A program made the position numbers and the translations under genes. Source: an uncultured bacterium (GTDB lineage: Bacteria; Fidelibacterota; Marinisomatia; Marinisomatales; UBA1611). From it: DNA of 64,000 nucleotides. Location of the stretch: positions 1 to 64,000 of the forward strand of contig CALSPG010000003.1 in assembly GCA_943788175.1 (NCBI GenBank), in the 5' to 3' direction. Positions 22,601 through 52,141 of the stretch are shown here, one piece after another (within the stretch, counting starts at the first letter, position 1; every line of letters starts with the position of its first letter). A model generated the notes under the pieces. The model searched no databases. It saw nothing but the letters and a program-made list of their open reading frames with translations, and was not told the DNA's origin.

Positions 22601-25600
22601 TTAATTATCGATGAGACGCCTCATGACTATGCAAATTTAACTTATTCTAGAAAGTATGTAAACGGAGTGGATCATAGTCCGGTAATTACAATTAGATTTG
22701 ACCCGACAGATTTTGCTTATGATGCGCCAAAAATTTCAGCCACTTATGAAAGTAATAGTGTTCCATTAAACCCAACTACAAATGAATCAATGACTATAGG
22801 TTCTGATAGTAGTACTTATACTTATCAGATTGATATTCCTGGAGATAGGACAACAAATATTTATGACGGTGTCGTTACTCTATCGATTATTGCAACTGAT
22901 AAAGCAGGTAATCCTACTGATTCTGCTAGTGTAACAAATAAAAAATATTTGATTGTTGATAATACAAGACCAACTGTCCAATTTGAATATGAAAATGCGA
23001 CTTATGCGATAGCTAAAGATGAAAACAAAGGGAAGTCTGGACAGTTAATAAAAGTAGTCGCATTGCCCTCTGAGCCCATGTTCTTATCACCTGATTCTGA
23101 CAATGAAGTCGTAAAGCCAACATTATCTATTGATTCTTTATCATTACCTATTACTACAAATATTTTTCCGGCTTTGGATGGAGATTACAACAATACGGCT
23201 TTAGATGGAGATAGTATAAAATATTCTTTTACATTGCCAACAAAAACAGAATTTGATGAAGAAGTGTTCAATTTGAGATTGTTTATTAGTGGCACAGATT
23301 TAGCAGGAAATTCAGTAGACTCGCTGACTGGTTACACGTCAAGTACGGCTTTTAAGTTTGATAATAAGGCTCCAATTTTTGATCAGTTTCTACTTGCAGA
23401 TAGTTCTTTCATTCGGGCTTCTACATTAGGTTGGTACAATAGTGAAGATATGAGTTCTGCAAATGTTAAATTTAAGCCTGTGGGTGCATCTGCTAGTCCA
23501 GCTATTCTAACGGAAGGTGATCCGATTTCACTGACAGCTGACGTCTTTGATGAACTTAGCCGCGGTGCAAAAGGGCCGTATTCAATAAATAATAATACTC
23601 TATTAACTGCGGCTTTAGCTGACAGCAATACATATGATATTATTTTTCAAGGTACAGATATGGTTGGTAATGTTGGCATAGATACTATCAAACATGTTAC
23701 GTTTGATACTAAAGCGCCTACAGCAAAGGTGACTTACGAAACTGAGTATATAACATCTTTATCTCCAAAAGCTGGTACGATAATCAAGGTTACTTTTAAT
23801 GAGCTTCAAACTGTTGCACCAACTATTAGATTATTTTATGGTGGTGATTCTGCACAGAGCAAAGGCGGTGCTACTTGGATTGTTGATGATCTAGCTTCAT
23901 ACATAGATACGTTAAATTCTCCAAAGATTGACGAACCAATAGTAATGATTGATTCAACTGATGATGCAAGAACGTGGTATTATGTTATTGATTCAACTGA
24001 TGTACAATCAAATTCAGCAGATAATATATATGATGGTTTTGTATGGGCACAGCTGTCTTCTAATGATCTTGCTGGGAACTCATTTGATAATGATAGTCTA
24101 GTATTTTCTGATTTTGAAAACCTTTTATATTTTGATAATACTGAACCTACAGCAACTATTACTTACGAAAATCTTAGAGATTCACTTTTGACATCTTACG
24201 ACCCTAGCGGGATCGAATCATATTGTTGTTTTGCTATCTCTGGTGATACTGTTCTTGTAAAAGTAGAGATGAATGAAAAAGTAAAATACAATCCTTCTTC
24301 GCCACCAACGTTAAGTCTTGAATACAACTCTAATAGTGCTACAGATGGTAGTACAGAGATAGGCATTTTACCATTTCCTGTTCCAGAAGTAGATATTAAA
24401 GATGTGGGCGAGCAGACTGCGATGACATTCCATTATAGAATAGTCATTAAAGATAGCACGAAGAATGATGGTACGTTAAAAACAACATTAGTTGCAAACG
24501 ATAGGTCGGGTACTCCTGTTACAAATTATGGAAATAGTTCTCAAAAATCTGGGTTAATTAATTCTAGACTTGCACTAGAGATTGATAATATTCATCCCTG
24601 GGGGGATATAAGCTATCCTATATTTGCTGAGGGTCATTCCGAAGTGACGTTCCCTACGGATACATTTAAAACGACTGGATTTCGTGTAATTGAAAATTGG
24701 ATAAATAAAGCAACAGACAGTATTTATATTGACATTCCGTATCAAAAACCTTCCACAGATAGTACTCTTCTGGGAGAAGCTTCAGGTTGGGGGCCTCAAG
24801 CAAAAATTGATTTACAGATTCGTAATATTGATTTAGGTACAGGTCAGTGGCAGATATTTGGTAATGGAGATACAATAAAATCTGATCTTAGCTTTACACC
24901 CTTTGGTGATTATATAAATATGATTACAATTACTCGTGGTATCGAAGATTTAATACCAGAGACAATGCTTAATACAGGTGAAGGCGCATTTAACAGAATG
25001 CAATTCAGGGCTGTATTAGAGGATATGCATGGTAATATCACTTACGGACAACCTAGTGATGCATATAAAATGGAAAATAATTTATATTTCGTTGATTTAT
25101 CTAACGCCGATACAATTCGCTATGATATCGTATCGCCATCCCTTGGCGCTTACAACGATGGTAACTTTGCTGGTGCTGTTGGATCAAAATTAATTTCTAG
25201 TGATACAATTACAATTAGTTGGTCTGAGTTTACAGATCCGGGAGGTGCTGCTGCTTCAGGCGTTGATCTTTACGAACTGCAGGCTTATGTTTATCCTTCA
25301 ACATGGAATGGTGGGTCTTCCGCAGATACTCTTAATAGAATTGACAGCTTATTTACTGTCGATTCTAATTTAGATGGAATCGATGATCCAGGTTATTGGT
25401 ATAAAATATATAAAAATGATGCACCGTCGTTTAATAACCCCATAACGTTGAACGCATTAGATAGCGTTGTAAATGATCCTATATCAAATAGTGATATAAT
25501 TTATGATTATAATGATACCTTAAAGCATGAGCTTCATTATATGCTTTTTGTAAGAGCTTTTGATGTCGCAGGTAATGCCTCTGATACAATTTATACAAAT

Positions 25601-31838: not shown

Positions 31839-32285
31839 ATGGTAGATCAAACAGATTTAAAAATTTTAAAATTACTCCAAAATGACGGCAGAGAGACAGC
31901 CAGTAAAATTGCAGAAAAATTAAAGCTTACAGTTCCCACTATCACTGAAAGGATTAAAAAACTTCAAGAAGCATCAGTTCTAAAAGGATTTCAAGCAATT
32001 ATAGATGCAAAGTCAGTTTCATTAGATGTCTCAGCTGTTATTACAGTTGTAGCTTCTACATCTGCTAATTATAAAGTAGTAATTGAAAATGCTGTAGAAT
32101 GCCCTGAAGTTATTCAATGTTTTGCGACTACTGGCGTGGGTTCATTGCTTTTATGGGTAGCAACAAAAAACTCGCAATCTCTTGAAGCATTATTGAGAAA
32201 AATCCAAAGTTGGCCAGATATTACACGAACTGAAACTCAAATTATTTTATCATCTTACAAGGACTTACCAAAGCTACCTCTTTAG
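31839..32285 (+). CDS. Lrp/AsnC family transcriptional regulator (paralog 1)
   Basis: DQTDLKILKLLQNDGR HTH start, RIKKLQE, C-terminal RTETQIIL. Confidence 0.93.
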   Translation: MVDQTDLKILKLLQNDGRETASKIAEKLKLTVPTITERIKKLQEASVLKGFQAIIDAKSVSLDVSAVITVVASTSANYKVVIENAVECPEVIQCFATTGVGSLLLWVATKNSQSLEALLRKIQSWPDITRTETQIILSSYKDLPKLPL

Positions 32286-32413
32286 CGTTATTTATTTTAT
32301 TTAGTAAAAATTGTGTATTTCTTTATTTTATTAGATATAAAATATAAATACCTAATAAAGTATTTCATTTGTCAATAAATATTAATAATATAATATATTA
32401 ATATTTATTAAAA

Positions 32414-32875
32414 ATGAAAGTTGATAGCATAGATAAACAAATTTTAGCGATTTTACAACAAGATGGCAGAACATCTGCGAGTAATATTGCATCTGAGCTT
32501 AATGTATCAATTCCAACGGTAACAGATCGCATTAAGAAGTTGCAAGATTCACATATTATAAAAGGTATTCATGCTGTTTTAGACCCGAAACCCTTAGGAT
32601 TAGATGTTGCTGCAATAATTACACTTATTTCAGAATCTTCATCTCATTACAAAGAGGTTACAGAAGCAGCTGAAATGATGCCTGAGGTTTTACAATGCCT
32701 CTCAACAACAGGCAAGGGGTCTCACATGCTGTTTATCGTTACTCGTAATTCTTCGACATTGGAAGGATTATTAAAAACAATTCAAAGCTGGCCCGGAGTT
32801 ACTAGAACTGAGACTCAAATTATTTTGTCTGATTATAAAATGATTCAAAAAATAACAGATTTAACTACAATCTAA
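32414..32875 (+). CDS. Lrp/AsnC family transcriptional regulator (paralog 2)
   Basis: DSIDKQILAILQQDGR, RIKKLQD, GVTRTETQIIL. Confidence 0.93.
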   Translation: MKVDSIDKQILAILQQDGRTSASNIASELNVSIPTVTDRIKKLQDSHIIKGIHAVLDPKPLGLDVAAIITLISESSSHYKEVTEAAEMMPEVLQCLSTTGKGSHMLFIVTRNSSTLEGLLKTIQSWPGVTRTETQIILSDYKMIQKITDLTTI

Positions 32876-33966: not shown

Positions 33967-34395
33967 TTAGCATTTTGAAAGCAAGTTTATAGCCTCAAGA
34001 TACCCCTCTTTACCTCTTCCTGAAATCTGCTTTATTGCCACTTCTTTAATTACAGATTTTTTTCTGAAGTCTTCTCTTGAATTTATATCACTCAAGTGCA
34101 CTTCTACAGTTGGAATATTAATAGCGGAAATAGCATCTCTAATCGCATAAGAGTAGTGAGTATATGCACCAGCATTTATAATTATTCCATTGAATTTTGA
34201 TTCAAAAGCCCAATGTAATTTGTTGATAATTTCACCCTCACTGTTTGATTGAAACCATTGAAGGTCATTTTTTAATGTATCAACTTGTTTTGTTACCCAT
34301 GAAATAATCTGTTCTAAACTTTCTTTACCATAAATCGTTGGTTCTCTTTTTCCAATTAGGTTGAGATTAGGACCATTTATTATTAAAAATTTCAT
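33967..34395 (-). CDS. aroQ: type II 3-dehydroquinate dehydratase
   Basis: NGPNLNLIGKREPTIYG, QSNSEG, INAGAYTHYS, EVHLSDINSREDFR. Confidence 0.96.
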   Translation of the reverse strand: MKFLIINGPNLNLIGKREPTIYGKESLEQIISWVTKQVDTLKNDLQWFQSNSEGEIINKLHWAFESKFNGIIINAGAYTHYSYAIRDAISAINIPTVEVHLSDINSREDFRKKSVIKEVAIKQISGRGKEGYLEAINLLSKC

Positions 34396-34396
34396 T

Positions 34397-35465
34397 TTAT
34401 AATAATTTAAAAGATTCTTTTAAGATGAGATTATCTACATTCTTGACTAATAGTTGCCTCACCAATTTTATTTAGAATAATAAACTTTAATTTCCCTTTG
34501 ACAAATTTTTTATCCCGTTTGATAAGGGATAATAATTCTTCGCTGTTTATTTTTTTTAATTTAGGGAGTGGAAGGGTCCGAATTAATTTTTCTAGAACGT
34601 TAAATTGCTTTTCATCTAACTTTTTAAGTTTAAAGGAAACATATCCTGCGCAGAGCATTCCAAATGCTACTGCTTCACCATGTCGTAATGTATTAAAACC
34701 AAATTTTAACTCTAGAGCATGACCGATGGTATGCCCAAAATTCAAAATTCCTCGAATTCCATTATCAAATTCATCTTTTGATACGATATCTGCTTTTAGC
34801 TTACAACAAATTTCAATAGCTTCTGAAAAAGGAAATGCTGGGATATCTTGAACCCAAAGTGAAATTTTTTCAAAAAACTCCTTATCTAAAATAGCACCAT
34901 ACTTTATTATCTCTCCTAGGCCAGAAATTACTTCCTCTTGTGAAAGGGTAGCTAAAAAATTTTGATCTATAAACACTCCTTTTGGTTGATATATTGCTCC
35001 AATTAAATTTTTACCCCTGTCTATATTAATTCCAGTTTTACCTCCAATTGATGAGTCAACCATTGATAATAGTGTTGTAGGAATTTGGAAATATTTAATA
35101 CCTCTCATAAAGCTGGAAGCAATAAAACCAGAAACATCACCAACGACTCCTCCACCCAATGAAAGGATACACGTTTTTCGATCACAACCTAAATCAATCA
35201 TTTGACTTATTGCTCTATTGTATTCGTTTATACTTTTTGCTGCTTCTCCATTTGGCAACGTAATATAAGAACAGTCAAATCCTGAACAGATTAGATTGCT
35301 TTTAAGATCATATCCGAATAGTTCCATCAATTTATATTGCGATATAATTATCCATTTTTGTCCATTATTATATTCGGATAATAACGATGGAAGGCTGTTT
35401 TTTATACCAGGTTCAATATTTATGTAATATGAACGATCTCTAAGATTAACTTTATACTTTTTCAA
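34397..35465 (-). CDS. aroB: 3-dehydroquinate synthase (ORF track ends 34431; a one-base shift near 34445 extends it to TAA 34397)
   Basis: GGGVVGD, PTTLLSMVDSSIGGKTGIN, LNFGHTIGHALE, HGEAV. The alternative frame gives NVDNLILKESFKLL*, ending 1 nt before the aroQ ATG. Confidence 0.95.
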
Positions 35466-35964
35466 CTTTTATATTTTTAATTATTGTTTTACAAATATCA
35501 TCTAACGATTTATTATCAGTAATGACTGTATCGTTTGCAGACTCAAAAAAAAGTAATTTTCTTTCTTCATAAATAGCTTTTAGCGATTTTTTAATATTTT
35601 TATAATCAATTAAAGGTCTATCCATATTGATATCATTTGATAATCTTTTTTTTAACGTTGATAATGATGATTTTAAATATATTGTATAACCTTTATTTTT
35701 TAAATAGTTTCTATTTTCTTTTGCTAAAATACTTCCACCTCCACAAGAAATAACACCATCACCGCGTATTTTTTTTAATGATTCTTTTTCAATTTGTCTA
35801 AAATATTGCTCGCCTTTTTTTTTAAAAATTTCATTTATTGAAATTCCTTCACTATCTACTAGCATACTATCAGTATCAAAAAATGGCATATCCATATATT
35901 TTGATAATCTTTCCCCAACTGATGATTTACCACTACCCATCATTCCTATCAAAAATATTTTCAT
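35452..35964 (-). CDS. aroK: shikimate kinase
   Basis: GMMGSGKS P-loop, DTD, GEQYFRQIE, SCGGG, RPL. Confidence 0.95.
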   Translation of the reverse strand: MKIFLIGMMGSGKSSVGERLSKYMDMPFFDTDSMLVDSEGISINEIFKKKGEQYFRQIEKESLKKIRGDGVISCGGGSILAKENRNYLKNKGYTIYLKSSLSTLKKRLSNDINMDRPLIDYKNIKKSLKAIYEERKLLFFESANDTVITDNKSLDDICKTIIKNIKVEKV

Positions 35965-37124
35965 TAATATTTAGCGGATGCTTTTAAATGAGCTCGTAAT
36001 TGTTTCATAGAATCGCCACCAAATTTTTCTAAAATTACATCAGCTAATACAATACACATCATGCTTTCGGCTATGATGGACGCAGCTGGAACAGCACAGG
36101 AATCAGTTCTTTCTTTGTGAGCATCTTTTTTTTCTTTTGTATGAATATCGATAGACCTTAATGATTTAATTAATGTAGGAATAGGTTTCATAGCAATTTT
36201 CGCAATTATTGGCATAGCATTACTCATTCCACCCTCAATTCCGCCAGCATTATTTGAGAAGCGTTTATAATTTTTACCATCCCATCCGATTTCATCATGA
36301 ATTTCACTTCCGAATTTTTCTCCTGAACTTAAACCTTGCCCAATTTCTATAGATTTAAAAGCATTAACACTCATCAACAGTGAAGTTATTTTTGATTGCA
36401 GTTTTCGATCCCATTGTGAGTAAGAACCCAAACCATAAGGTAGTCCTGTTGAAAAAACTTCAAAAACCCCACCGACTGAGTCACCATTTTGTTTTGCTTG
36501 ATCGATAATATCAATCATTTCACTTTCTTTGTTTTTATCTAAACATCTTAATGGAGAATTATCGGCTAAATCATTGATTGCATTTGCAGTCATGCTTTTG
36601 GGTATGTCTGATGTATCAGTAATATTGTGAATTTGAACCACTCTGCTTGCAACATTTATTCCTATCTCATTTAATAATTTTCTACATACAGATGCAAGCG
36701 CAACCCTCATCGTTGTTTCTCTAGCGCTTGATCTTTCTAAAACATTTCGTATGTCATCAAAACCAAATTTTTCAACACCTGCAAGATCAGCATGTCCAGG
36801 ACGAGGGAGTGTCACTTTTTTAGGTTTTTTTTCAGGCACTCCAATGGTCATTTTATCTTTCCAATTTTCCCAGTCCTTATTTCTAACTATCAAACCAATT
36901 GGTGATGCTATAGTTTCACCAAGTCTTATACCTGACCAGATTTCCACTTGATCTTTTTCAATTTTCATCCGTCCACCTCGACCATATCCCATCTGTCGCC
37001 TACCAAGCTGAATATCGATGTACTCTTTTTCGATTTTTAATCCAGCCGGAATTCCATCAAGTATGCCTAATAATCCTCTTCCATGGGATTCTCCAGCAGT
37101 TAAAAATTTTATTTTTGTAAGCAT
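35964..37124 (-). CDS. aroC: chorismate synthase
   Basis: TAGESHG, RPGHADL, ERSSARET, GDSVGG, NNAGGIEGG, MKPIPT. Confidence 0.97.
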   Translation of the reverse strand: MLTKIKFLTAGESHGRGLLGILDGIPAGLKIEKEYIDIQLGRRQMGYGRGGRMKIEKDQVEIWSGIRLGETIASPIGLIVRNKDWENWKDKMTIGVPEKKPKKVTLPRPGHADLAGVEKFGFDDIRNVLERSSARETTMRVALASVCRKLLNEIGINVASRVVQIHNITDTSDIPKSMTANAINDLADNSPLRCLDKNKESEMIDIIDQAKQNGDSVGGVFEVFSTGLPYGLGSYSQWDRKLQSKITSLLMSVNAFKSIEIGQGLSSGEKFGSEIHDEIGWDGKNYKRFSNNAGGIEGGMSNAMPIIAKIAMKPIPTLIKSLRSIDIHTKEKKDAHKERTDSCAVPAASIIAESMMCIVLADVILEKFGGDSMKQLRAHLKASAKY

Positions 37125-37903
37125 AAGTGTTTCTCTAAGGTAGTTTTAATTATTTTAAAATTAATATGTTCATCGACATTTTCACCAAGCCAAATATTTA
37201 AAGATGCAATTCCTTGAAAAATAAGCATATCAAGACCACTGATGGTTCGGGCTCCTAATTTTTCGCATTGTCTTAACCACTTAGTTTTTAGTGGGTTATA
37301 TATCGTATCAATAATAATATGGCTATCATTGACTTCTATTTTAGAAGGTATTTTATGTTCATATCGTCCCATTCCTAGCGGTGTGCAGTTTATGATAATT
37401 TTGGGATTAATATTTTTACAAGATATTCCTCTTTTTAAAATCCAATTCTCCAATTTAATTTTATTTTCAAGATTTCTATTTTCTACTGATATAGATTCAG
37501 CGTTTCCTTCAATGAGTGCAAAAGCAATGGCGTACGCTGCTCCACCAGCTCCAATAATTAAACACGACTTGTTTTCGATATCAACTTCGTTTTGTTTGAG
37601 AGCATGTAAAAAACCAATCCAATCAGTATTATAACCTTTACTATTGTAAACGCAGTTTACAGCTGTTATTTCTCGTGCATAAACATCAAGATATTTAAGA
37701 TCCTTTATAATAATATTTTTATGCGGGATAGTTACGTTGTATCCATCATAATTATTTGTGTTTACAAAATTTTTGATTTGATATGGGAAAACATTAATTT
37801 TTTCATAAGAAGCATCTATCTTAAGTTGTTTTATAATTGTTGTGTGAAGTAGTGGACTAATGGTTTGACTTACAGGGTTTCCAATTACTGCAAACTTCTT
37901 CAT
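37109..37903 (-). CDS. aroE: shikimate dehydrogenase
   Basis: GNPV..ISP, NVTIPHK, AVN, NTDWIG, GAGGAA, NCTPLGM, GLDMLIFQG. Confidence 0.95.
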   Translation of the reverse strand: MKKFAVIGNPVSQTISPLLHTTIIKQLKIDASYEKINVFPYQIKNFVNTNNYDGYNVTIPHKNIIIKDLKYLDVYAREITAVNCVYNSKGYNTDWIGFLHALKQNEVDIENKSCLIIGAGGAAYAIAFALIEGNAESISVENRNLENKIKLENWILKRGISCKNINPKIIINCTPLGMGRYEHKIPSKIEVNDSHIIIDTIYNPLKTKWLRQCEKLGARTISGLDMLIFQGIASLNIWLGENVDEHINFKIIKTTLEKHLCLQK

Positions 37904-39150
37904 TTTACTAGCATTTTTATTTTATTGAAAAAATCTGGAAATGATATATCTACGCAATCATAATTATCCAGTATTGTATTGCCTTCAGCAACCAGACCTG
38001 CAATAGTAAAAGCCATCGCAATTCTATGATCATTGAAAGTGTTTATATTGGCTCCTTTTAATTTTGTAGGCCCAGTTATTGTCAACCCGTCTTCAAACTC
38101 TTCAACACATGCGCCCATTTTTCGGAGATTAATCACTATTGCTTTAATTCTGTCTGATTCTTTTACTCGTAGTTCTCTTGCACCTTTTATCATTGTTTTT
38201 CCAATTGCCTGAGTTGCAATAACGGCAAGCATTGGTATTTCATCAATTATACTCGGTATCTTACTTTCTTTAATATGAATGCCAAGTAACTTTCGTTGTT
38301 TGATTGATATATCATTCACTAATTCGCCAGCTACATTTTTTCCATTTTTCAGATTTATATCTACTCCCATTGACTTAATTATATTAAAAAATTCAAATCT
38401 AGTGGGGTTTGATAATATTTTTTTTAATATTAAGGTTGATTTTGGCAATATTGATGCTGCTCCTGCAAAAAAAGCTGCGGATGATGGATCTCCAGGTATT
38501 TCAATATTAAGTGGTCTGAGAGCATGAATTGGAGGTATAAGACAAATACCATTATTTGCTTTCTTAATAGTTACGCCAACATTTTTCAGCATTATTTCTG
38601 TATGGTCTCTTGATAATATAGGTTCATGGTAGTAAGTAGGCTTAGTTGCGGTTAAACCTGAGAGTAAAATTGCAGATTTGACTTGCGCGCTTGAAATTTT
38701 ATTTTTGTATTTAAAACCAGTTAATACACTTTTTTTGATTATTATTGGTGCAAGACTATTAATGCTTTTTATATCGACACCTCTTTCAAAAAGGGGTTTG
38801 ATTATTCTCTCCATTGGTCTGTTTGAAAGAGATTTATCTCCTATTAAAGTAGCATTTATTCCTTTGCTTGCTAATAACCCGCAAAGCAACCGCATAGAAG
38901 TACCTGAATTACCACAGTCAAGCTCTTTTGAAGGGCTAGAAAATGTATCTCCTTTTATAAGTTTAACATTATTTAGACCATTTTTTATAGATATGCCACA
39001 AAGTTTTAGGCAATATTCTGTTGATTGAACATCTTTACCATCTGATAAGTTTTTTATAGTCGAAATTTGTGGTGAAAGTGATGCAACCATCAGTGCTCTG
39101 TGAGATATCGATTTGTCCCCAGGGAGATTGATTGAACCTGTAATAGTCAT
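37900..39150 (-). CDS. aroA: EPSP synthase
   Basis: PGDKSISHRAL, DCGNSGTSMRL, SSAQVKSA, RDHTE, PGDPSSAAF, ELRVKESDR, DHRIAM. Confidence 0.97.
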   Translation of the reverse strand: MTITGSINLPGDKSISHRALMVASLSPQISTIKNLSDGKDVQSTEYCLKLCGISIKNGLNNVKLIKGDTFSSPSKELDCGNSGTSMRLLCGLLASKGINATLIGDKSLSNRPMERIIKPLFERGVDIKSINSLAPIIIKKSVLTGFKYKNKISSAQVKSAILLSGLTATKPTYYHEPILSRDHTEIMLKNVGVTIKKANNGICLIPPIHALRPLNIEIPGDPSSAAFFAGAASILPKSTLILKKILSNPTRFEFFNIIKSMGVDINLKNGKNVAGELVNDISIKQRKLLGIHIKESKIPSIIDEIPMLAVIATQAIGKTMIKGARELRVKESDRIKAIVINLRKMGACVEEFEDGLTITGPTKLKGANINTFNDHRIAMAFTIAGLVAEGNTILDNYDCVDISFPDFFNKIKMLVK

Positions 39151-40499
39151 TATTGTTTTCTTAAACAGTCAGCGATTAGAAATGCTAATTCTATTGCTTG
39201 ATTTGCATTTAGTCTTGGGTCACAGTGAGTGCGGTATCGATCTTTTAAGTCTGAATCAGAAATTTTATCTAAACCACCCGTACATTCTGTTACATTTTGT
39301 CCCGTCATTTCAAGGTGGATTCCTCCTGGATGAGAGCCTTCAGCTTTATGAATCTCAATATTTGACTTTACTTCGCCTAAAATATTCTCAAACCTTCTAG
39401 TTTTTACTCCTGATTTATTTTTTATTGTATTCCCGTGCATTGGGTCACAAGACCAAATCACATTTTTGCCTTCTTTAGTTAATGTTTTGATAATTTTAGG
39501 AAGATACTGTTCAACCTTGTTATACCCAAAGCGTGTAATTAAGGTTATTTTGCCTGATTCATTTAAAGGGTTTAGCGTATCTATTATTTTTAATAGAGAC
39601 TCAGTATTGGTTTTTGGTCCACACTTTATACCAATTGGGTTCTGAATTCCTCGACAAAATTCAATATGGGCACTATCAATAAATCTAGTTCGATCGCCAA
39701 TCCACAAAAAATGTGCTGATGTATTATAAGTATCTCCCGACGTTGAATCTGATCTGGTTAGTGCTTCTTCATATGGAAGTAATAAGGCTTCATGACTGGT
39801 ATAGTATTTCACACTTCTAAGTTGAGGCGTATTGCTTGAATTAATACCTAAAGCTTCCATGAATTTTAAACTTTTCTGAATTTCCTCAGCTAAATGTCCA
39901 TATCTTTCACCTTGAGAACCGCCTTTAACAAACCCCATATTCCAAGATTGTACATGTTTTAAATCTGCATAGCCTCCGTCTGCAAAAGCTCTTAGGAGGT
40001 TCAAGGTAGATGCAGCTTGAGAGTATGCTGTTAGCATTCTATCTGGATCAGGTGCTCTTTTTATCGAATCAAATTCAATACTATTAATTATGTCGCCAGC
40101 ATAACTAGGAAAGCTTTGACCATTTATTGTTTCGAACTCACTTGATCGGGGTTTAGCAAATTGTCCAGCCATTCTACCAACTTTTATAACTGGTAGTTTA
40201 GTGCTTGATGTTAGAATAACTGCCATCTGAAGTAATACTCTAAAAGTGTCACGAATATTATCAGCATTAAATTCCGAAAAACTCTCTGCACAATCTCCAC
40301 CTTGCAATAAAAATCCATTGCCGTCACTCACTTCTGAAAGGTTCTTTTTTAAAGCGCGTACTTCGCCGGCAAAAACCAGAGGTGGAAAGCTTTTAAGTGT
40401 TTTTTCAGTAGCTCTTAATTTTTCAGCATCTCTGTACGTAGGAACGTGCTTTGCTTTAAAATCCCGCCAACTGTTTATTCTCCATTGGTTCATTTTCAA
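39150..40499 (-). CDS. class II (plant-type) DAHP synthase
   Basis: 449 aa; PPLVFAGE, LLQGGDCAE, GRMAGQFAKPRS, TSHEALLL, LWIGDRTR, CDPMHGNT, GGIHLEMTG, CDPRLN. Confidence 0.96.
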   Translation of the reverse strand: MKMNQWRINSWRDFKAKHVPTYRDAEKLRATEKTLKSFPPLVFAGEVRALKKNLSEVSDGNGFLLQGGDCAESFSEFNADNIRDTFRVLLQMAVILTSSTKLPVIKVGRMAGQFAKPRSSEFETINGQSFPSYAGDIINSIEFDSIKRAPDPDRMLTAYSQAASTLNLLRAFADGGYADLKHVQSWNMGFVKGGSQGERYGHLAEEIQKSLKFMEALGINSSNTPQLRSVKYYTSHEALLLPYEEALTRSDSTSGDTYNTSAHFLWIGDRTRFIDSAHIEFCRGIQNPIGIKCGPKTNTESLLKIIDTLNPLNESGKITLITRFGYNKVEQYLPKIIKTLTKEGKNVIWSCDPMHGNTIKNKSGVKTRRFENILGEVKSNIEIHKAEGSHPGGIHLEMTGQNVTECTGGLDKISDSDLKDRYRTHCDPRLNANQAIELAFLIADCLRKQ

Positions 40500-41218
40500 A
40501 CTCCTTCAGAGTCGTTTTTAACTTTTTCAAAAGATTCTTTTAATCTGCGTATTGTGTTTTTTGTATATGGATTGTAAGATTGCAGATCTGAATATAGTTG
40601 CCAGCTATCATTGCAGGTCTGCTCAACGAGGTTCAATAAATCTCTAAATCCTTGAGTATCTAGATTCGTTTTAGAAATACCAAATTCCTTCAGAGTTCGT
40701 CCAAGAAAATGAGTGATACCTTGAGTATTAGCTGCAAGCTTATCATGTTCTTCTGGACTCATATCTAACACATTAATATTTTGATCATTGAAGTATTTTT
40801 TCCAAAAAGGATATTGGTTTTGGCAGTCTCTCGTTCTATGCATCATCATTTTTAACTTCTGGTTGGTTAAAATAGAATCAGGGCCAAACATTGGGTGTGT
40901 TGATATTATTCCAATATTTTTAGGGAGGTGTTTTAACATTACTCTTGATGTATGAATTTTAACAGAACAAACATCAATGATGGTCCTATCACCTTCAATA
41001 ATTTTCGATATTTTTTGAATTAATTTTTCAAATTGGTGTATTGGAATAGCTACAAAAATAATCTTTTCCTCAAGTACTTTTTCTAAAGTAAGAAAGTTGA
41101 CATTTCTTGTTGAGACTCCTTCTTCAATATCATGAACTTTTAATGAAAAACCTTTTTGAAGAATATTTGCTAATACTTTACCAAATCTTCCATATCCAAT
41201 TATTCCGATAGTAGTCAT
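40496..41218 (-). CDS. tyrA: prephenate/arogenate dehydrogenase (short, plant-TyrA-like, no ACT domain)
   Basis: IGIIGYGRFG, DVCSVK, THPMFGP, EEHD..AA.TQGITH. Confidence 0.9.
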   Translation of the reverse strand: MTTIGIIGYGRFGKVLANILQKGFSLKVHDIEEGVSTRNVNFLTLEKVLEEKIIFVAIPIHQFEKLIQKISKIIEGDRTIIDVCSVKIHTSRVMLKHLPKNIGIISTHPMFGPDSILTNQKLKMMMHRTRDCQNQYPFWKKYFNDQNINVLDMSPEEHDKLAANTQGITHFLGRTLKEFGISKTNLDTQGFRDLLNLVEQTCNDSWQLYSDLQSYNPYTKNTIRRLKESFEKVKNDSEGV

Positions 41219-41787
41219 TTTAAGTCGAGCTTACAAACACCAATAAACAAGGTTAGGTTGTGTTTTAAATCATGTATACTATTTTCTAATATCTCTAAGC
41301 CATAAATGTCTGCACATGCTCTATTTGCTATTACAGCTGCCGTGTTAGGTAACTTTTTTTGGCTTAGACGACGAGCAGATTCTGCAGTGTCATCCTCTTC
41401 GATCAATGGCCTAGTCCAAAAATTTTCACTTAAATAATTTTTGCATTGTCTTAATGCTTGCCTATGAGAATGAATTTGAGTTATATCTCCAATTTTTGTA
41501 CCACTTAAACCTAACAGGTTTTGTTCGATTGGAATATGGAACATTTCAATTATTTTGGCTTTATGAAGTGCAAGAGCCTCTACGCTTTCAATAACGACAC
41601 CTCCTTGTGCATTCTCCATTGCGAATATCCCAAAATCTGTTTTTGAATTTTCAATACTATCTAAAACCGAATGAGATGATATAAGATAGTCAATCTCATA
41701 ATCATCGATGCCATGATTTGAAGCAAATTTAACTGCTGCATCTTCAGAAAAACTCCCTTTTGCTCCTTGTATACCTATTTTTTTCAT
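41215..41787 (-). CDS. pheA: prephenate dehydratase, catalytic domain only (no ACT domain)
   Basis: QGAKGSFSEDAA, ENAQGG, HSHRQALRQC, DTAESA, NLTLF; 190 aa. Confidence 0.88.
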   Translation of the reverse strand: MKKIGIQGAKGSFSEDAAVKFASNHGIDDYEIDYLISSHSVLDSIENSKTDFGIFAMENAQGGVVIESVEALALHKAKIIEMFHIPIEQNLLGLSGTKIGDITQIHSHRQALRQCKNYLSENFWTRPLIEEDDTAESARRLSQKKLPNTAAVIANRACADIYGLEILENSIHDLKHNLTLFIGVCKLDLK

Positions 41788-41819
41788 ATTATTGTATTTA
41801 ATTGTTTGGAATGATTTAT

Positions 41820-41851
41820 AAAAAAAAACCTCGAAAATTTTCGAGGTTTTT
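41820..41851 (-). terminator. intrinsic (attenuator) terminator upstream of pheA
   Basis: Perfect palindrome AAAAACCTCGAAAATTTTCGAGGTTTTT (41824-41851); on the minus strand the GC stem is followed by 9 U. Confidence 0.9.
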
Positions 41852-41880
41852 AAAATTAATTTATAACTTGTTAAGAAAAA

Positions 41881-41949
41881 TCAATAAACCTCTTGGGATC
41901 TAAAAAAATATTTAAAATAGTAACTAAATATTAAGAATGCTCTATTCAT
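41881..41949 (-). CDS. Phe/Tyr-rich attenuator leader peptide MNRAFLIFSYYFKYFFRSQEVY (22 aa)
   Basis: Translated by hand: ATG at 41949-41947, TGA at 41883-41881; 5 Phe and 4 Tyr codons; contains GAGGUUU complementary to the terminator 5' arm. Confidence 0.85.
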   Translation of the reverse strand: MNRAFLIFSYYFKYFFRSQEVY

Positions 41950-41984
41950 ACCTTAAATTTTAATAATAATATTAAGATTAACCA

Positions 41985-42263
41985 CTATTTTTTTAATTTT
42001 TGGATATCTTTTGAAATTAAAAAAATTGTTTTAAGTAATACTTCAGCGTGCTCAGGTTTAATTTTATTTTTATAGTCGTTTGATATCCGTTTAATTATAG
42101 CATTTTCTCTCGAGCCGTCATCAATAGGGATTTTATAGGTAGATTTTGATTCTCCAATCTTTTTTGATATATCAAATCTTTTAGCAAATAATTCAAAAAT
42201 TTGATTATCAATGTCATCAATTAAATTTCTTAGCCTGATAATGTTATCTATTTGTTCATTCAT
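41985..42263 (-). CDS. monofunctional chorismate mutase (AroQ/CM_2 fold)
   Basis: LRNLIDDIDNQIFELFAKR...IGESK...PIDDGSRE...IFLISKDIQ; 92 aa; next to pheA/tyrA. Confidence 0.9.
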   Translation of the reverse strand: MNEQIDNIIRLRNLIDDIDNQIFELFAKRFDISKKIGESKSTYKIPIDDGSRENAIIKRISNDYKNKIKPEHAEVLLKTIFLISKDIQKLKK

Positions 42264-42371
42264 AATGTAAAATTAGTTTTGTAGTCAAATCTAATTTACT
42301 AATTCAAAAAATAGTATGATTAATATTAAATATCTTTTTGAATTAATACTCTAACTGTAATTATATTATAT

Positions 42372-42455
42372 CTTCTCTAGGGGTGTTGTATTGTTTTACA
42401 ACTGAAATTAAACCCTTATAACTTGATCTGGATAATACCAGCGGAAGGAACGAGG
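42372..42455 (+). ncRNA. TPP (thi-box) riboswitch
   Basis: AGGGGTG-[TTGTA/TACAA hairpin]-CTGAAA...ACCCTT..AACTTGATCTGGATAATACCAGCGGAAGGAA matches the TPP aptamer layout. Confidence 0.92.
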
Positions 42456-42457
42456 CT

Positions 42458-44798
42458 ATGCGCATACTCTTTTTACTTTTTATTTTAATTCAATCACTTA
42501 CAGCTAATTCAATTCCTATTTTTGGAATTGTTAAAGATAGTTTACTCAATCGAACATTGGAGGGGGTAAACGTATTATCAGGTAGTAATGGTACTAGTAC
42601 TGATAAACAGGGCGTATTCATTATTGATGCTGAAACAGAGTATTTAACCATTAGTCATATTGGGTTTAAAACAGTTGAAATTCTTGTTAAGGATACTATT
42701 TATGTCAATTTAATTCGAGATATTATTTTATCAGATGAAATAGTTATTGTTTCTTCATTATCAGAACAGTCACTTTTTAATTCTTCATCAAGCATTGCAG
42801 TTATAGATCAAAATGATTTAAAAAATCATAATTTTGATCATTTCCAAGATGCTATAAATAGTATACCAAATTTAAATTTTGCTGGTGGCACAAGTAGACC
42901 TAGATATTTTCAAATAAGAGGCATTGGCGAAAGAAGTCAGTTTTTTGGTGAAGGTTCACCGAATCATTCTGTTAGTTATGAACTTGATGGTATTGATTTA
43001 AGTGGTATTGGAATGATTGGAGGGACTATTGATGTAAATAATATAGAAGTTGCGAGAGGCCCTCAATCAACAGTTTTTGGGAATAATTCAATAGCAGGAG
43101 CGATTAATATATCTATCTAATGAGCCTGAAAGAAAAAAAATAATCAAGCTTAACTACAAGACTGGTAATGATAATTACAAATATACCGGCATTACTGCGA
43201 ACCTTAAAGCATTAGGAAATTCATACTTTAGATTTAATTTTTACAAAAATTATCAAGATGGCTTCAGAAAAAATAAATTCCTAGGAGTTAAAAATACTAA
43301 TAAAAAAGATGAAACGTTTTTTAGGTTTAAAATGAATTTTTCAATTAATGAAAATATTCTGCTTAAAAATACATTTTTATTATCAGAAATGGATAACGGA
43401 TATGATGCTTGGGCGCCAGATAATAATAAACAATTTTTCACGTATTCAGACCAACCGGGAAGAGATTATCAAAATACTAAGGCTATCGCTTCAAAATTGA
43501 TACTGAAAAATAAAAACTATAATACGCTGCTAAGATACTCCTCTTCTTCATCTGATATAATTTATAGTTATGATGGAGATTGGGGTAATAATGCTTTCTG
43601 GGAAAATCCAAGCACATATAATTTCGATTCTTATTATTACGGTTATTATTCGCCTTATCAATATTTCGATAAAACAACCAGGGCAAAAAACAACACAACC
43701 TCAGAGCTTCGTTTTTACAATAAAAAATTATCAATTGGCGCATACTTTAAAAAATTAGAAGAAAAAGATGATGGAGAAGGTTATTTATTTGGTGGCGAAG
43801 GAAATGTTTCTAGAGCCAGCAGTGATTACAACATCGATATTAAAGCGGTTTATGCTCATTTAAATTCTGATTTGAATGACAAAATTAGCTTATCTAACAG
43901 TTTTAGGTACGAAATGAATGACGTTAATTACATTGGTAAATCATTTGGATATTCTAACGATACAATACCAACCGTTCGCTCAAATAAAGATTTTAAACTA
44001 AATGGTTTTAAAAGTAGTGTTGCCTACAAAATAGGTTCAGATTTTAAACTTTTTGCTCATGCATCATATGGCTATAAAACAGGTGGCGTTAATCAACAGC
44101 CATATGTTTCATCTCAAAACCGTATCTACAATCCAGAGTATTTAGGTAATTTTGAAATAAGTTTAAAGCATAGTACAGATAAAATTTTCACAAATATTTC
44201 TTATTTCTACAATGATAGAATAGATCAGCAAATTTCTATATCTGCTCAGCAAAATGTAAATGACCCTAATAGTTTTTATTATTTTACAGCTAATAGTAAA
44301 AATGGAGGCTTTTCAAGGGGTATTGAATTTGACTTGAATGCGCGAGTATCTGAAAAGCTATTTTTGAAAACTTCTTTTGCATATTTAGATACTTGGACAA
44401 GCAAATTTTCTTATACCGTTAATAATAATGATGTTCAATTTGGAGGCGCTCGCCAGGCAGCTATGGCACCAAAAATTACGTCGTCAGCATCAATTACTTA
44501 CAATTACAAATCAATGTCTTTTACGTTGAATCAAAGTCACAAAGGTGAATATTATTTCTCTGATAGCCACAACTTTAAATCAGAAGATTATGCTTTAACA
44601 AATATTTCTATTAATAAAATTTTAGATAACTTTAAAATTAGTGTTTGGGCAAAAAATATTTTTGATCATAAATATGCTGTAAGAGGATTTTATTTTGGCT
44701 TAATCCCGCCAAATTATGAAGACCAGCTATGGGTTAGTTATGGTGAGCCAGCACAATATGGTGTCTCACTTGATTATAATTTTAATGATTCTTTTTAA
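42458..44798 (+). CDS. TonB-dependent receptor, probably for thiamine or a precursor; one apparent frameshift near 43115 (ORFs 42458-43120 and 43332-44798)
   Basis: Signal peptide, carboxypeptidase-regulatory-like N-domain, plug motifs (QIRGIG, IEVARGPQSTVFG...GAINI), C-terminal KNIFD...YGVSLDYNF; lies under the TPP riboswitch. Confidence 0.88.
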
Positions 44799-48908: not shown

Positions 48909-50279
48909 ATGACAAAAAACACTAAATTCAAGTCTATGCCGTCAGTTACATCGATTATAAATTCGATTAATAACGATTTAGGTGTTCATGAGAACTTTTT
49001 AAAAGATTTGATTAATCAAGAATTAGATGAATTGAGATCAAAAATAATTAATGAGAATTATGATTTTGAAAAAGATGTAGTTATCAAAAAAATCGTTACT
49101 GCAGTGACGGAAAAAGCTAGATCATCTTTTGTTAATATTATTAATGGCACTGGTATTGTGCTGCACACGGGGTTTGGGAGAGCTCCATTCGCAGGTTCAC
49201 ATTTAAAAAATATTGCAGATAAAATTAATGGCTATTCAAATCTCGAGTTTAATCTAGAAAAAAATATGAGGGGAGACCGTCAATCACACATTGACAAGCA
49301 CATTGCCTCTATTTGTGGAACTGAAAATTCAGTCGTCGTCAATAATAATGCTGCGGCTCTTTTATTAATTATTAATTCTTTATCAGAAAATGCTGAAGTT
49401 ATCTGTTCAAGAGGCCAAATTGTTGAAATTGGTGGTTCATTTAGAATATCTGAAATTATTAAAAAAGGAGGTGGCATTTTAAAGGAGGTTGGATCTACCA
49501 ACCGCACACATCTTGAAGATTATGAAAAAGAAATTTCTAAGAATACTAAACTATTGTTATGGGTTCATACAAGTAATTATATCATGAAAGGTTACACTAA
49601 AGAAGTGCCTTTAGAAGATATAGTTTCTATAGGTAAAAAATATAAAATTCCTGTAGTGGCAGATTTAGGTAGTGGCTCTTTTATAGATATGAGTAAGTTT
49701 GGTATTCCTTCTGAAATCCCAGTTTCTGAAATAGTAAAAAAAGGTCCTGATATCACACTTTTTTCAGGGGACAAAATGCTTGGAGGGCCGCAATCAGGAA
49801 TAATACTGTCTACAAAAATTTTAATAAACATTATCAAGTCAAACTCAATCTATCGCACGGTAAGATGTGATAAAATTACAATTGCCATTTTAGATGATAT
49901 TCTTCGTAGTTATAAAAAAAATGGATTTTTAAAATCTAATCTCGCTTTAATGTTATTGACGAAAAATAGAAAAACCTTAAAAAAAATGGCTGAAAAAATA
50001 ATAAATAGTGTTCAGGAGTATAAACTTCGGACTCTTGGTCTGACCATTGAGAATTCTATGGTTGAGGCTGGAAGCGGTTCTTTACCTGAAAAAAACCTTA
50101 AAAGTGTTACTCTGAAATTTTCGCCTAAGGACATGTCCATTGATGTTCTATCAAAATCATTTAAACAATACAAGGTTCCAATTATAGGTTATATCAATAG
50201 AAATTCATTTTTCATAGACCTTAAAGCTGTTTTACCTTCTCAAAGTTTTCATATAATTGATGCTATAAATAAAGTTTAA
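48909..50279 (+). CDS. selA: L-seryl-tRNA(Sec) selenium transferase
   Basis: INGTGIVLHTGFGRA, YSNLEFNL, VVNNNAAA, SRGQIVEIGGSFR, VHTSNY, DLGSG, FSGDKMLGGPQSG. Confidence 0.96.
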   Translation: MTKNTKFKSMPSVTSIINSINNDLGVHENFLKDLINQELDELRSKIINENYDFEKDVVIKKIVTAVTEKARSSFVNIINGTGIVLHTGFGRAPFAGSHLKNIADKINGYSNLEFNLEKNMRGDRQSHIDKHIASICGTENSVVVNNNAAALLLIINSLSENAEVICSRGQIVEIGGSFRISEIIKKGGGILKEVGSTNRTHLEDYEKEISKNTKLLLWVHTSNYIMKGYTKEVPLEDIVSIGKKYKIPVVADLGSGSFIDMSKFGIPSEIPVSEIVKKGPDITLFSGDKMLGGPQSGIILSTKILINIIKSNSIYRTVRCDKITIAILDDILRSYKKNGFLKSNLALMLLTKNRKTLKKMAEKIINSVQEYKLRTLGLTIENSMVEAGSGSLPEKNLKSVTLKFSPKDMSIDVLSKSFKQYKVPIIGYINRNSFFIDLKAVLPSQSFHIIDAINKV

Positions 50280-50281
50280 TT

Positions 50282-52141
50282 ATGCAGCAAATTGTTATTG
50301 GAACTGCTGGGCATATTGATCATGGTAAAACATCTTTGGTAGAAGCTCTTACTGGAACCAATACAGATACTCTTTTACAAGAAAAAAGTAGAGGAATTAC
50401 AATAGACCTTGGGTTTGCTTATTTAAATGAGCAAATCACCATTGTCGATGTCCCAGGTCATCAAAGGTTTATTAGAAATATGGTGGCGGGATCGTCAACT
50501 ATTCATATTGGTTTATTAGTAATAGCTGCTGATGATGGTGTAATGCCACAAACTTTAGAGCATCTCCATATTTTGAATAGTTTGTCTATTCTAATCGGAA
50601 TTACTGTAATAACAAAAATTGATGGGGTTGATAACGAATGGATAGACCTAGTTATATCTGATATTAAAAAGATTCAAAAAGATACTATTTTTCAAAATAG
50701 TCGTATTTTTAAAGTAGATAGTTTATCTCAGAAAGGAATAGGTGAATTAAAGAATTCTATCATTTCTATATCTCAGTCATTAAATGTTCTTGATAACTCA
50801 AAATTTTTTAAAATGTATGTTGATAGAGTGTTTAATAAAAAAGGATATGGTTCTATTGTAACAGGAACTATTAAGAGTGGTAATATATCAAAAGGTGATA
50901 GTATAGAAATATTACCAGAGAAAATAACAGCAACAGTTAGGGGTGTTCAAACTCATGGTGGTGAAGTTACCAATGTCAAATTTGGTGACAGGGCAGCTTT
51001 AAATCTATCAAAAGTTGATATAAATGTATTAAAAAGAGGCTCAATTTTATCTGCCATTGATAAGATAATAGTAACGAATTATTTAATAGTGAACTTAACT
51101 ATGTCCAGACATACGCTTTGGACAATTCAAAACAATCAGCGAGTAAGAATTCATTTAGGCACTGCTGAAATTTTAGCTAGAATTAATCTTCATATAAAAA
51201 AAATTGAACCTGGCAAAACTTGCAATGCAATTTTAAGATTAGAGAAAAAATGTGGAGTAACACTCGATGAGTTATTCGTGGTTCGTTCATACTCCCCAAT
51301 GGAAACAATTGCTAGTGGTGTTGTACTTGATACAAATGAAAGAATAAAAAAAGATAATCTTGGAGAAATACCAGTTGATAAAGTAGCAAGGTTTAAATAC
51401 ATGATATCTCGTAGATTAAAAAAGCCGCTAACAGTTAAGCAGTGGAGTGAAAAATATTTTCTATCTGAAGTTGAAATACTTAAAAAAATAAAACTAATAA
51501 AAGCAAAAATAACAAAGAGTGATTTAGTTTACTTTTTTGATGATTTAAACTCAGTGAAACAATCGGTGGTTAAATATGTTAAAAAAAAAACTAATCATGA
51601 TTTATTTCATAGTTATGTTGAAATGAATAATTTAAAACTCAATTTGAATTTATCTTCTGATTGGGCTAAATATGTTGTCAATGATTTAGTAAATGAAGAT
51701 TTATTAACTTTTAAAAACGGTAAAATAAAAATTAAAAATCAAGATTTAAAAATTGATAAAAAAATAGCAATTGACATTGATAATATAAAAAACTTGATAA
51801 ATAATAGCCCGCTGAAAATTATATCCATTAATGAATTAGTAAAGAAATCAAAATTAAATCCAAAATACGTTAAAGATTTGGTGTTTATGTTAAATGATAG
51901 AAAAAAAGTAGTTATTATTAATATGGATATTGTGACTAGTGCTGATGCTTTTGGTGCCATAATATCAAAATTGCAAATTTATTTTAGTGGTCAAGAATTA
52001 TTATCTGTTTCGAGTTTTAAAGAAATATCTATGCTTTCACGAAAAAATGCGATTCCAATGCTAGAGTACTTTGATATAAATGGTTACACTATCAGAAATG
52101 GAGCAAATAGGAAAAAAGGGCCTTATTTTTTTGAGCAATAA
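50282..52141 (+). CDS. selB: selenocysteine-specific elongation factor
   Basis: GTAGHIDHGKT, RGITIDLGFA, DVPGH, IAADDGVMPQT; C-terminal winged-helix SRKNAIPMLEYFD. Confidence 0.96.
   Translation: MQQIVIGTAGHIDHGKTSLVEALTGTNTDTLLQEKSRGITIDLGFAYLNEQITIVDVPGHQRFIRNMVAGSSTIHIGLLVIAADDGVMPQTLEHLHILNSLSILIGITVITKIDGVDNEWIDLVISDIKKIQKDTIFQNSRIFKVDSLSQKGIGELKNSIISISQSLNVLDNSKFFKMYVDRVFNKKGYGSIVTGTIKSGNISKGDSIEILPEKITATVRGVQTHGGEVTNVKFGDRAALNLSKVDINVLKRGSILSAIDKIIVTNYLIVNLTMSRHTLWTIQNNQRVRIHLGTAEILARINLHIKKIEPGKTCNAILRLEKKCGVTLDELFVVRSYSPMETIASGVVLDTNERIKKDNLGEIPVDKVARFKYMISRRLKKPLTVKQWSEKYFLSEVEILKKIKLIKAKITKSDLVYFFDDLNSVKQSVVKYVKKKTNHDLFHSYVEMNNLKLNLNLSSDWAKYVVNDLVNEDLLTFKNGKIKIKNQDLKIDKKIAIDIDNIKNLINNSPLKIISINELVKKSKLNPKYVKDLVFMLNDRKKVVIINMDIVTSADAFGAIISKLQIYFSGQELLSVSSFKEISMLSRKNAIPMLEYFDINGYTIRNGANRKKGPYFFEQ

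Follow-up and report, generated by a model that had tools for sequence, protein, structure and literature searches.

On the minus strand of the 64,000-nucleotide stretch analysed here (the window: positions 1 to 64,000 of contig CALSPG010000003.1, from an uncultured bacterium), a gene for a type II chorismate mutase is separated from a nine-gene aromatic biosynthesis operon by a gap of 197 nt, running from the chorismate mutase stop (41985) to the ATG of pheA (41787). Pfam assigns the first four operon products as prephenate dehydratase (PDT), PDH, class-II DAHP synthase, and EPSP synthase, and the remaining five as shikimate dehydrogenase, chorismate synthase, shikimate kinase, DHQ synthase, and type-II dehydroquinase; some neighbors overlap, and none are separated by more than 35 nt. 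A first-pass annotation, made from the sequence alone, had reported a 197-bp gap and nine downstream genes comprising pheA, tyrA, and all seven shikimate steps, and both the gap length and, by Pfam, the gene content are borne out. The window contains no trp genes. Its prephenate dehydratase matches the PDT domain alone in a Pfam scan, with the ACT domain absent, and the same holds for relatives of 186-200 aa; because of this missing domain, feedback inhibition of the enzyme by Phe may be absent. The features of the region are collected in Table 1.

Table 1. Positions of genes and predicted regulatory features around the aromatic operon leader of the window
Feature	Position	Strand	Basis
Chorismate mutase (CM_2, type II, 92 aa)	41985..42263	minus	Pfam CM_2, 68.4 bits
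Putative promoter: -35-like GTGGTT (41985-41980), 17-nt spacer, -10-like TAAAAT (41962-41957)	41957..41985	minus	conservation
Leader ORF, 22 codons + UGA	41949..41881	minus	translation
Putative regulatory codon cluster, codons 8-16: 4 Phe + 3 Tyr in 9 codons	41902..41928	minus	
Antiterminator 5' strand: codons 20-22, stop codon, and 2 nt further	41879..41892	minus	
Antiterminator 3' strand: 41861-41855 + 41849-41843	41843..41861	minus	folding; covariation in relatives
Intrinsic terminator: 12-bp hairpin (41851-41824) + T run of 9 ending at 41820	41820..41851	minus	
Prephenate dehydratase (pheA, PDT), 190 aa	41215-41787	minus	
Nine-gene operon: pheA, tyrA, class-II DAHP synthase, aroA, aroE, aroC, aroK, aroB, aroQ	33967..41787	minus	Pfam

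Several other features of the window are worth recording. At 31839-32875 on the plus strand, two adjacent AsnC/Lrp-type regulators stand beside a short (336 aa) glutamine synthetase, whose gene converges on the end of the aromatic operon. On the other side, divergent from the chorismate mutase gene, a TPP riboswitch (RF00059; 42369-42467, plus strand; 63.9 bits, gathering score 54.3) overlaps the start of a TonB-dependent receptor. Two plus-strand ORFs about 210 nt apart make up this receptor, one for the Plug/CarboxypepD_reg part (42458-43120) and one for the beta-barrel (43332-44798); a frameshift, a pseudogene, or an assembly error could account for the split. Further away on the plus strand are two giant ORFs, at 11084-16633 (1849 aa, with a Calx-beta domain) and 18152-27709 (3185 aa), as well as adjacent selA and selB genes (48909-52141), encoding selenocysteine synthase and its elongation factor, whose side-by-side arrangement implies the use of selenoproteins.

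The gap between chorismate mutase and pheA encodes a small ORF that translates as MNRAFLIFSYYFKYFFRSQEVY followed by a stop codon. The first-pass annotation had described it as a 22-aa minus-strand ORF with five Phe and four Tyr residues, and translation agrees on position and composition alike. At about 31% G+C, the AT-rich sequence around the leader readily yields Phe and Tyr codons, and one alternative takes the whole arrangement to be fortuitous: the hairpin would merely terminate the chorismate mutase gene, the small ORF would have arisen by chance in DNA whose composition favors TTT and TAT, and pheA would have a promoter of its own. In the long ORFs of the window, Phe and Tyr together account for 8.4% of residues. 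The two strands of the window together hold 475 ATG-initiated ORFs of 12-40 aa, of which the leader ORF alone reaches at least seven Phe or Tyr in nine residues, and only 19 of 20,000 mononucleotide shuffles of the gap, a count that argues against chance, yield an ORF that does so.

Downstream of the ORF, all 12 possible pairs of the terminator hairpin are formed, four of them G-C, around a loop of 4, with a predicted dG of -13.7 kcal/mol; the terminator ends 32 nt upstream of pheA. Between 33500 and 43000 we count seven terminator-like sites versus 4.4 +/- 2.0 in shuffles, and the leader terminator has the longest stem among the seven. When the 3' arm of the terminator is left out, the minimum-energy fold pairs GAGGUUU (41892-41886) with AAACCUC (41849-41843), a segment that doubles as part of the terminator 5' arm, and in the same fold a second antiterminator helix joins 41885-41879 with 41861-41855. 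The perfect hairpin with nine U just before pheA had been correctly recognized in the first-pass annotation, as had the complementarity of the two heptamers, which do pair in the fold; the 7-bp antiterminator that it proposed is too short, however, and is extended by the second helix. At -10.1 kcal/mol, the window antiterminator is weaker than the terminator, and judged on the window alone it falls short of significance (duplex z = -1.66; 8.3% of shuffles do equally well); the fold of the window sequence alone likewise gives z = -0.26 against shuffles. An antiterminator no better than shuffles is what the chance reading has in its favor, and because it is unconvincing in the window alone, the case for a regulatory switch rests on relatives.

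Homologues of the 190-aa PDT come from Marinimicrobia, Neomarinimicrobiota, or Fidelibacterota wherever the source gives a name. A single scan of a species-representative genome collection provided 80 loci, extending up to 3 kb on each side of pheA, mostly labeled Marinimicrobia and with PDT 66-97% identical (individual loci carry L numbers below). As the two nearest loci bear just the label 'bacterium', the window belongs to this lineage probably rather than certainly. At 30 of these 80 loci, a rule-based script recovered an aromatic-rich ORF (17-23 codons) with a hairpin and U run behind it; at L019 the terminator and the end of a leader are visible, the rest being cut off by the contig end. 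Together with the window, the 30 relatives make up a set of 31 leaders. The gene upstream of the leader was identified by Pfam scan, since tblastn with the window chorismate mutase, a short and diverged protein, missed most of these genes; of the 26 relatives scanned, 24 have CM_2 at this position, and the other two (L025 and L037) have a class-IV aminotransferase in place of chorismate mutase.

Across the 31 leaders, Phe and Tyr make up 185 of 635 codons (29%) in the reading frame, versus 53 of 635 (8%) and 80 of 635 (13%) in the other two frames. At least four aromatic residues within nine are present in 30 of the 31, and L014 is a weak leader with only three aromatic codons. The peptides differ widely over the set, and the aromatic run is retained. 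Even among the three closest sequences (window, L001, and L002), codons 4, 7, and 18 change amino acid, and the aromatic codons show one synonymous TTT/TTC change and one change from Phe to Tyr. Some leader-bearing relatives have a leader G+C content much higher than that of the window. To judge from this codon evidence, the leader ORF is under selection as a reading frame. One could suppose that it encodes a functional hydrophobic micro-protein and that the hairpin is unrelated, as some leader peptides, for example peTrpL of Sinorhizobium, are described as acting in trans; given that the peptides (17-23 aa) share little beyond the aromatic run, and that their C-terminal residues follow the RNA helix rather than a peptide motif, we find this scarcely credible.

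Between the U run and pheA lie 1-64 nt in 28 of 31 loci, and in four loci just 1 nt. In a subfamily of four loci (L008, L025, L035, and L037), the leader has a 5' UTR of 20-21 nt and the terminator U run abuts the TTG start of pheA. A consensus scan of the window finds no promoter-like site between the hairpin and pheA. With neither room nor a site for a promoter past the terminator, pheA must be read through it. The first-pass annotation had named a separate promoter in this interval, or loss of the ORF or of its Phe and Tyr codons in relatives, as evidence that would tell against an attenuator; no such promoter is found in the window, the spacers in relatives are short, and the ORF, its aromatic codons, and GAGG/CCUC-type pairing are all kept in relatives.

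We further examined both alternative helices in alignments of the relatives. In the 31-row alignment A2, 89.2% of terminator cells are paired, compared with 28-65% in slid controls, and four pairs are changed on both sides. The antiterminator reaches only 66.4% of cells paired on this one-piece alignment, because two subfamilies pair in different registers, and we therefore replaced the A2 test with an alignment-free duplex test and two subfamily alignments, A3 and A4. Given sequences without the terminator 3' arm, RNAalifold predicts a long-range antiterminator helix unprompted in both subfamily alignments. The 13 named antiterminator pairs of A3 have 88.5% of cells paired (33-49% when slid; 0 of 500 shuffles as high), with 14 doubly changed cells, and the nine named pairs of A4 have 88.6% (25-63% when slid), with compensatory changes at four pairs in each alignment; in the clade of the window, a C-to-U change in the terminator arm is matched by G-to-A changes in both of its partners. 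Shuffle controls, which overstate significance and independence because the sequences are related, give in the duplex test a mean z of -2.7 over the 31 loci, with at most 5% of shuffles equally good at 23 of the 31 (rows read by eye). In the relatives the antiterminator, with a mean of -18.6 kcal/mol, is stronger than the terminator (mean -13.3 kcal/mol). This covariation, together with the short spacers before pheA, the strong frame bias, and the persistence of the aromatic run in 30 relatives including those with leaders of higher G+C, speaks against a chance ORF in front of an independently transcribed pheA, which we regard as extremely unlikely.

The spacing between codons and helix is equally regular. 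In 21 of 31 loci the antiterminator 5' strand starts to pair 11-13 nt beyond the first base of the last aromatic codon (median 12), and in the window this strand begins 12 nt past the first base of the last Phe codon; the stop codon lies inside or just past the strand. The footprint of a ribosome stalled in the aromatic run would end just short of the 5' strand, and that of a ribosome at the stop codon would cover it. At 30 of 31 loci, minimum-energy folds pair the antiterminator 5' strand with bases upstream of it, but shuffles fold equally well (z about -0.65 to +1.96), and a stable 1:2 hairpin was not found in the 31 loci, so that one element of the textbook trp model appears to be missing.

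These dimensions also bear on whether the switch might be set by an RNA-binding trans factor (a protein, a tRNA, or a small molecule), with translation of the ORF incidental. The window has Rfam matches to PyrR (23.6 bits), His_leader (23.5 bits), and Phe_leader (RF01859; 24.4 bits, E = 0.32, versus a gathering score of 55), all far under their gathering scores, so that the element is not a member of the Phe_leader family; the two AsnC/Lrp-type regulators 9 kb away could be counted on the same side. Neither a T-box nor a riboswitch match falls at the leader, however: T-box (RF00230) has no match at E <=10 in 41000-43000 and none at gathering score in 20 relatives, and no Rfam family reaches its gathering score at the loci of these 20. 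Moreover, the RNA between leader ORF and terminator is just 25-39 nt long, and a ligand-binding model does not account for an aromatic run that is kept in frame and placed 12 nt from the helix. We consider control by a trans factor very unlikely.

A Phe/Tyr-rich frame and a switchable terminator, conserved together in relatives, are most likely to represent a classical ribosome-sensing attenuator. The antiterminator/terminator layout proposed in the first-pass annotation is supported by the conservation, the covarying alternative helices, and the spacing in relatives, and we hold it to be very probable that the element is a ribosome-mediated leader-peptide transcription attenuator gating the nine-gene pheA-tyrA-shikimate operon. 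The response to aminoacyl-tRNA, the start site, and the identity of the amino acids that count are what we infer from sequence comparison.

Upstream of the ORF, the only invariant columns in A2 form the motif TAAnnT, of which the T, A, A, and last T are identical in 31 of 31 loci, and most relatives carry a TTG-type motif 17 nt upstream of it. In the window, the leader ATG lies 7 nt past the -10-like hexamer and an SD-like motif is absent. The same distance is 7 nt in 19 loci and 8 nt in seven (26 of 31 overall), with an SD-like motif in none of these 26; the remaining five loci have a spacer of 20-23 nt, and two of them (L008 and L035) an SD-like AAGG. A consensus promoter scan of the window did not flag the proposed leader promoter because its -35 element is poor. 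The missing SD motif at the leader means little by itself, since such motifs are rare in this genome, preceding 7 of 48 ORFs in the window (ORF starts uncurated); TAnnnT occurs 6-15 nt from the start codon in 13 of the 48, so that initiation on leaderless transcripts, or otherwise independent of an SD motif, may be common here. Shuffled sequences are as structured as the leader coding region, which fits a 5'-terminal start. Transcription probably begins at the conserved promoter within the 35-nt interval that separates chorismate mutase from the leader, and not at the chorismate mutase promoter; the chorismate mutase gene is upstream of and outside the attenuated unit. From the spacing of TAAnnT we incline, by a little, to the view that the leader peptide is leaderless.

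In the proposed mechanism, the RNA would begin at or next to the leader AUG, from the promoter between chorismate mutase and the leader, and a ribosome would translate the 22 codons. When Phe-tRNA and Tyr-tRNA are plentiful, the ribosome would reach the UGA and cover 41892-41879, leaving the terminator 5' arm free, so that the 12-bp hairpin and U run would form and RNA polymerase would stop 32 nt short of pheA. When charged Phe- or Tyr-tRNA is scarce, the ribosome would stall within codons 8-16 with its front edge about 12 nt downstream, just short of 41892; the free 41892-41879 segment would then pair with 41861-41843, blocking the terminator, and the polymerase would read on into the operon.

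Which of the two amino acids matters is a separate question. The leader upstream of the aroF operon of Corynebacterium glutamicum, aroR, also mixes Phe and Tyr codons, and it is described as raising transcription under Phe limitation with no effect of Tyr supply (PMC11802643, citing Neshat et al. 2014). The attenuator may likewise be real and sense one amino acid, most likely Phe, with the Tyr codons adding little or nothing: TTT/TTC and TAT/TAC are one base apart, so that AT-rich drift can swap them, and L002 has Tyr at a position that is Phe in the window. However, every one of the 31 leaders has 2-6 Tyr codons, Tyr outnumbers Phe in several (6 to 1 in L022), and the operon encodes both PDT and PDH. 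We think a response to one amino acid unlikely, though a serious alternative, and, because of the aroR precedent, regard true dual sensing of Phe and Tyr as an even bet.

The mechanism itself is classical. As in the pheL and trpL leaders of Escherichia coli, a short ORF with a run of end-product codons is combined with a mutually exclusive antiterminator and terminator, the stop codon lies beside the antiterminator 5' strand, and pheA is the first gene after the U run. Unlike pheL, which has Phe codons only and controls pheA alone, the window leader mixes Phe with Tyr codons and would control nine genes, including the seven shikimate steps; unlike both E. coli leaders, it has no stable 1:2 hairpin that we could find and probably no 5' UTR. 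The pheL element is described as mainly gammaproteobacterial, with candidates in Bacteroides and Desulfobacterium and only a few beyond the proteobacteria (PMC3082878). Mixed Phe/Tyr leaders and leaderless leader peptides both have precedents. The aroR system, as it is summarized in the source cited above, is similar in that a mixed Phe/Tyr leader peptide attenuates an operon containing DAHP synthase, but it differs in phylum, sequence, and operon content, has a three-residue Phe-Tyr-Phe stretch where the window leader has seven aromatic residues in nine, and responded to Phe only. Fourteen leaderless leader peptides have been predicted in Deinococcus deserti (PMC4007540), and poly-Cys leaderless uORFs are described in mycobacteria (10.1101/834739); in those accounts, as proposed here, the ORF begins at or within a base of the transcript 5' end, past a -10 element and without an SD motif. 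Starts in D. deserti and mycobacteria were mapped by RNA-seq, whereas ours is placed from the TAAnnT motif 7-8 nt before the ATG. Full-text searches of literature outside subscription journals returned no paper on an attenuator or leader peptide in Marinimicrobia, SAR406, or Marinisomatota, in agreement with the first-pass annotation, which knew of none in this probable lineage.

The relatives also connect this element to tryptophan synthesis. At 47 of the 80 loci, pheA is adjoined or overlapped by an ORF that is 226 aa or longer and has a trpA-like C terminus, and L009, the one of the 47 that was scanned, has the gene order trpF-trpB-trpA-pheA. Such relatives join trp with other aromatic genes, as does the aromatic supraoperon of Bacillus subtilis, in which trp and other aromatic-pathway genes form one transcription unit, regulated by the TRAP protein rather than by a leader peptide. 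At L003 and L054, trpA-like sequence is present with a broken frame (judged by eye). In three leader-bearing loci, what comes after the terminator is the beginning of an ORF fused to the end of trpA, at three different junctions, and then pheA (L010 at 2773-2931, L045 at about 2673-2995, and L049 at about 2795-2999). Pfam gives no match for the 52-aa L010 remnant, and a protein homologue search identifies it as the N terminus of a 494-aa Marinimicrobia anthranilate synthase component I (TrpE); identity reaches 100%, across 96% of the remnant. L046 and L048 retain shorter stretches of this trpE start. By the junctions in L010, L045, and L049, the trp genes between trpE and trpA have been deleted, leaving an N-terminal stub of trpE fused to the tail of trpA. 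Since an intact TrpE elsewhere is 100% identical over the stub, at least one of these apparent deletions is either recent or an assembly artefact.

Leaders at the loci with remnants tend to carry Trp codons inside the Tyr/Phe run (two in L010, one in L045, two in L049, one in L048, and none in L046), whereas of the other 26 leaders four have a Trp codon, within the run only in L030; as the remnant loci are close kin, this pattern is a lead and not a statistic. The remnants suggest an earlier position of the element in front of trpE, where it would have gated the trp genes jointly with those for phe, tyr, and shikimate; the lineage leading to the window would since have lost its trp block. Taken jointly, and tentatively, these observations could be read as the remnant of a leaderless tri-aromatic (Phe/Tyr/Trp) leader that once gated an ancestral trp-pheA-tyrA-shikimate supraoperon, from which the trp block was repeatedly deleted with the leader codons tracking gene content, Trp codons surviving beside visible trpE remnants and having disappeared from the window. 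As the prephenate dehydratase of the window has no ACT domain, flux to Phe and Tyr may be controlled mainly by the attenuator.

Marinimicrobia (SAR406) are abundant uncultured ocean bacteria whose gene regulation is almost unexplored. If our reading is correct, they use translation-coupled attenuation with canonical intrinsic terminators and have a sigma-70-like -10 element, and one switch can govern the whole aromatic pathway. For annotation, the element would be an RNA so far outside Rfam coverage. Repeated loss of tryptophan synthesis, as recorded in the trpE remnants, is relevant to auxotrophy and cross-feeding among marine bacteria with streamlined genomes. The element is also a possible in situ marker of Phe/Tyr (and Trp) limitation in these organisms and a target for 5'- and 3'-end analysis of metatranscriptomes.
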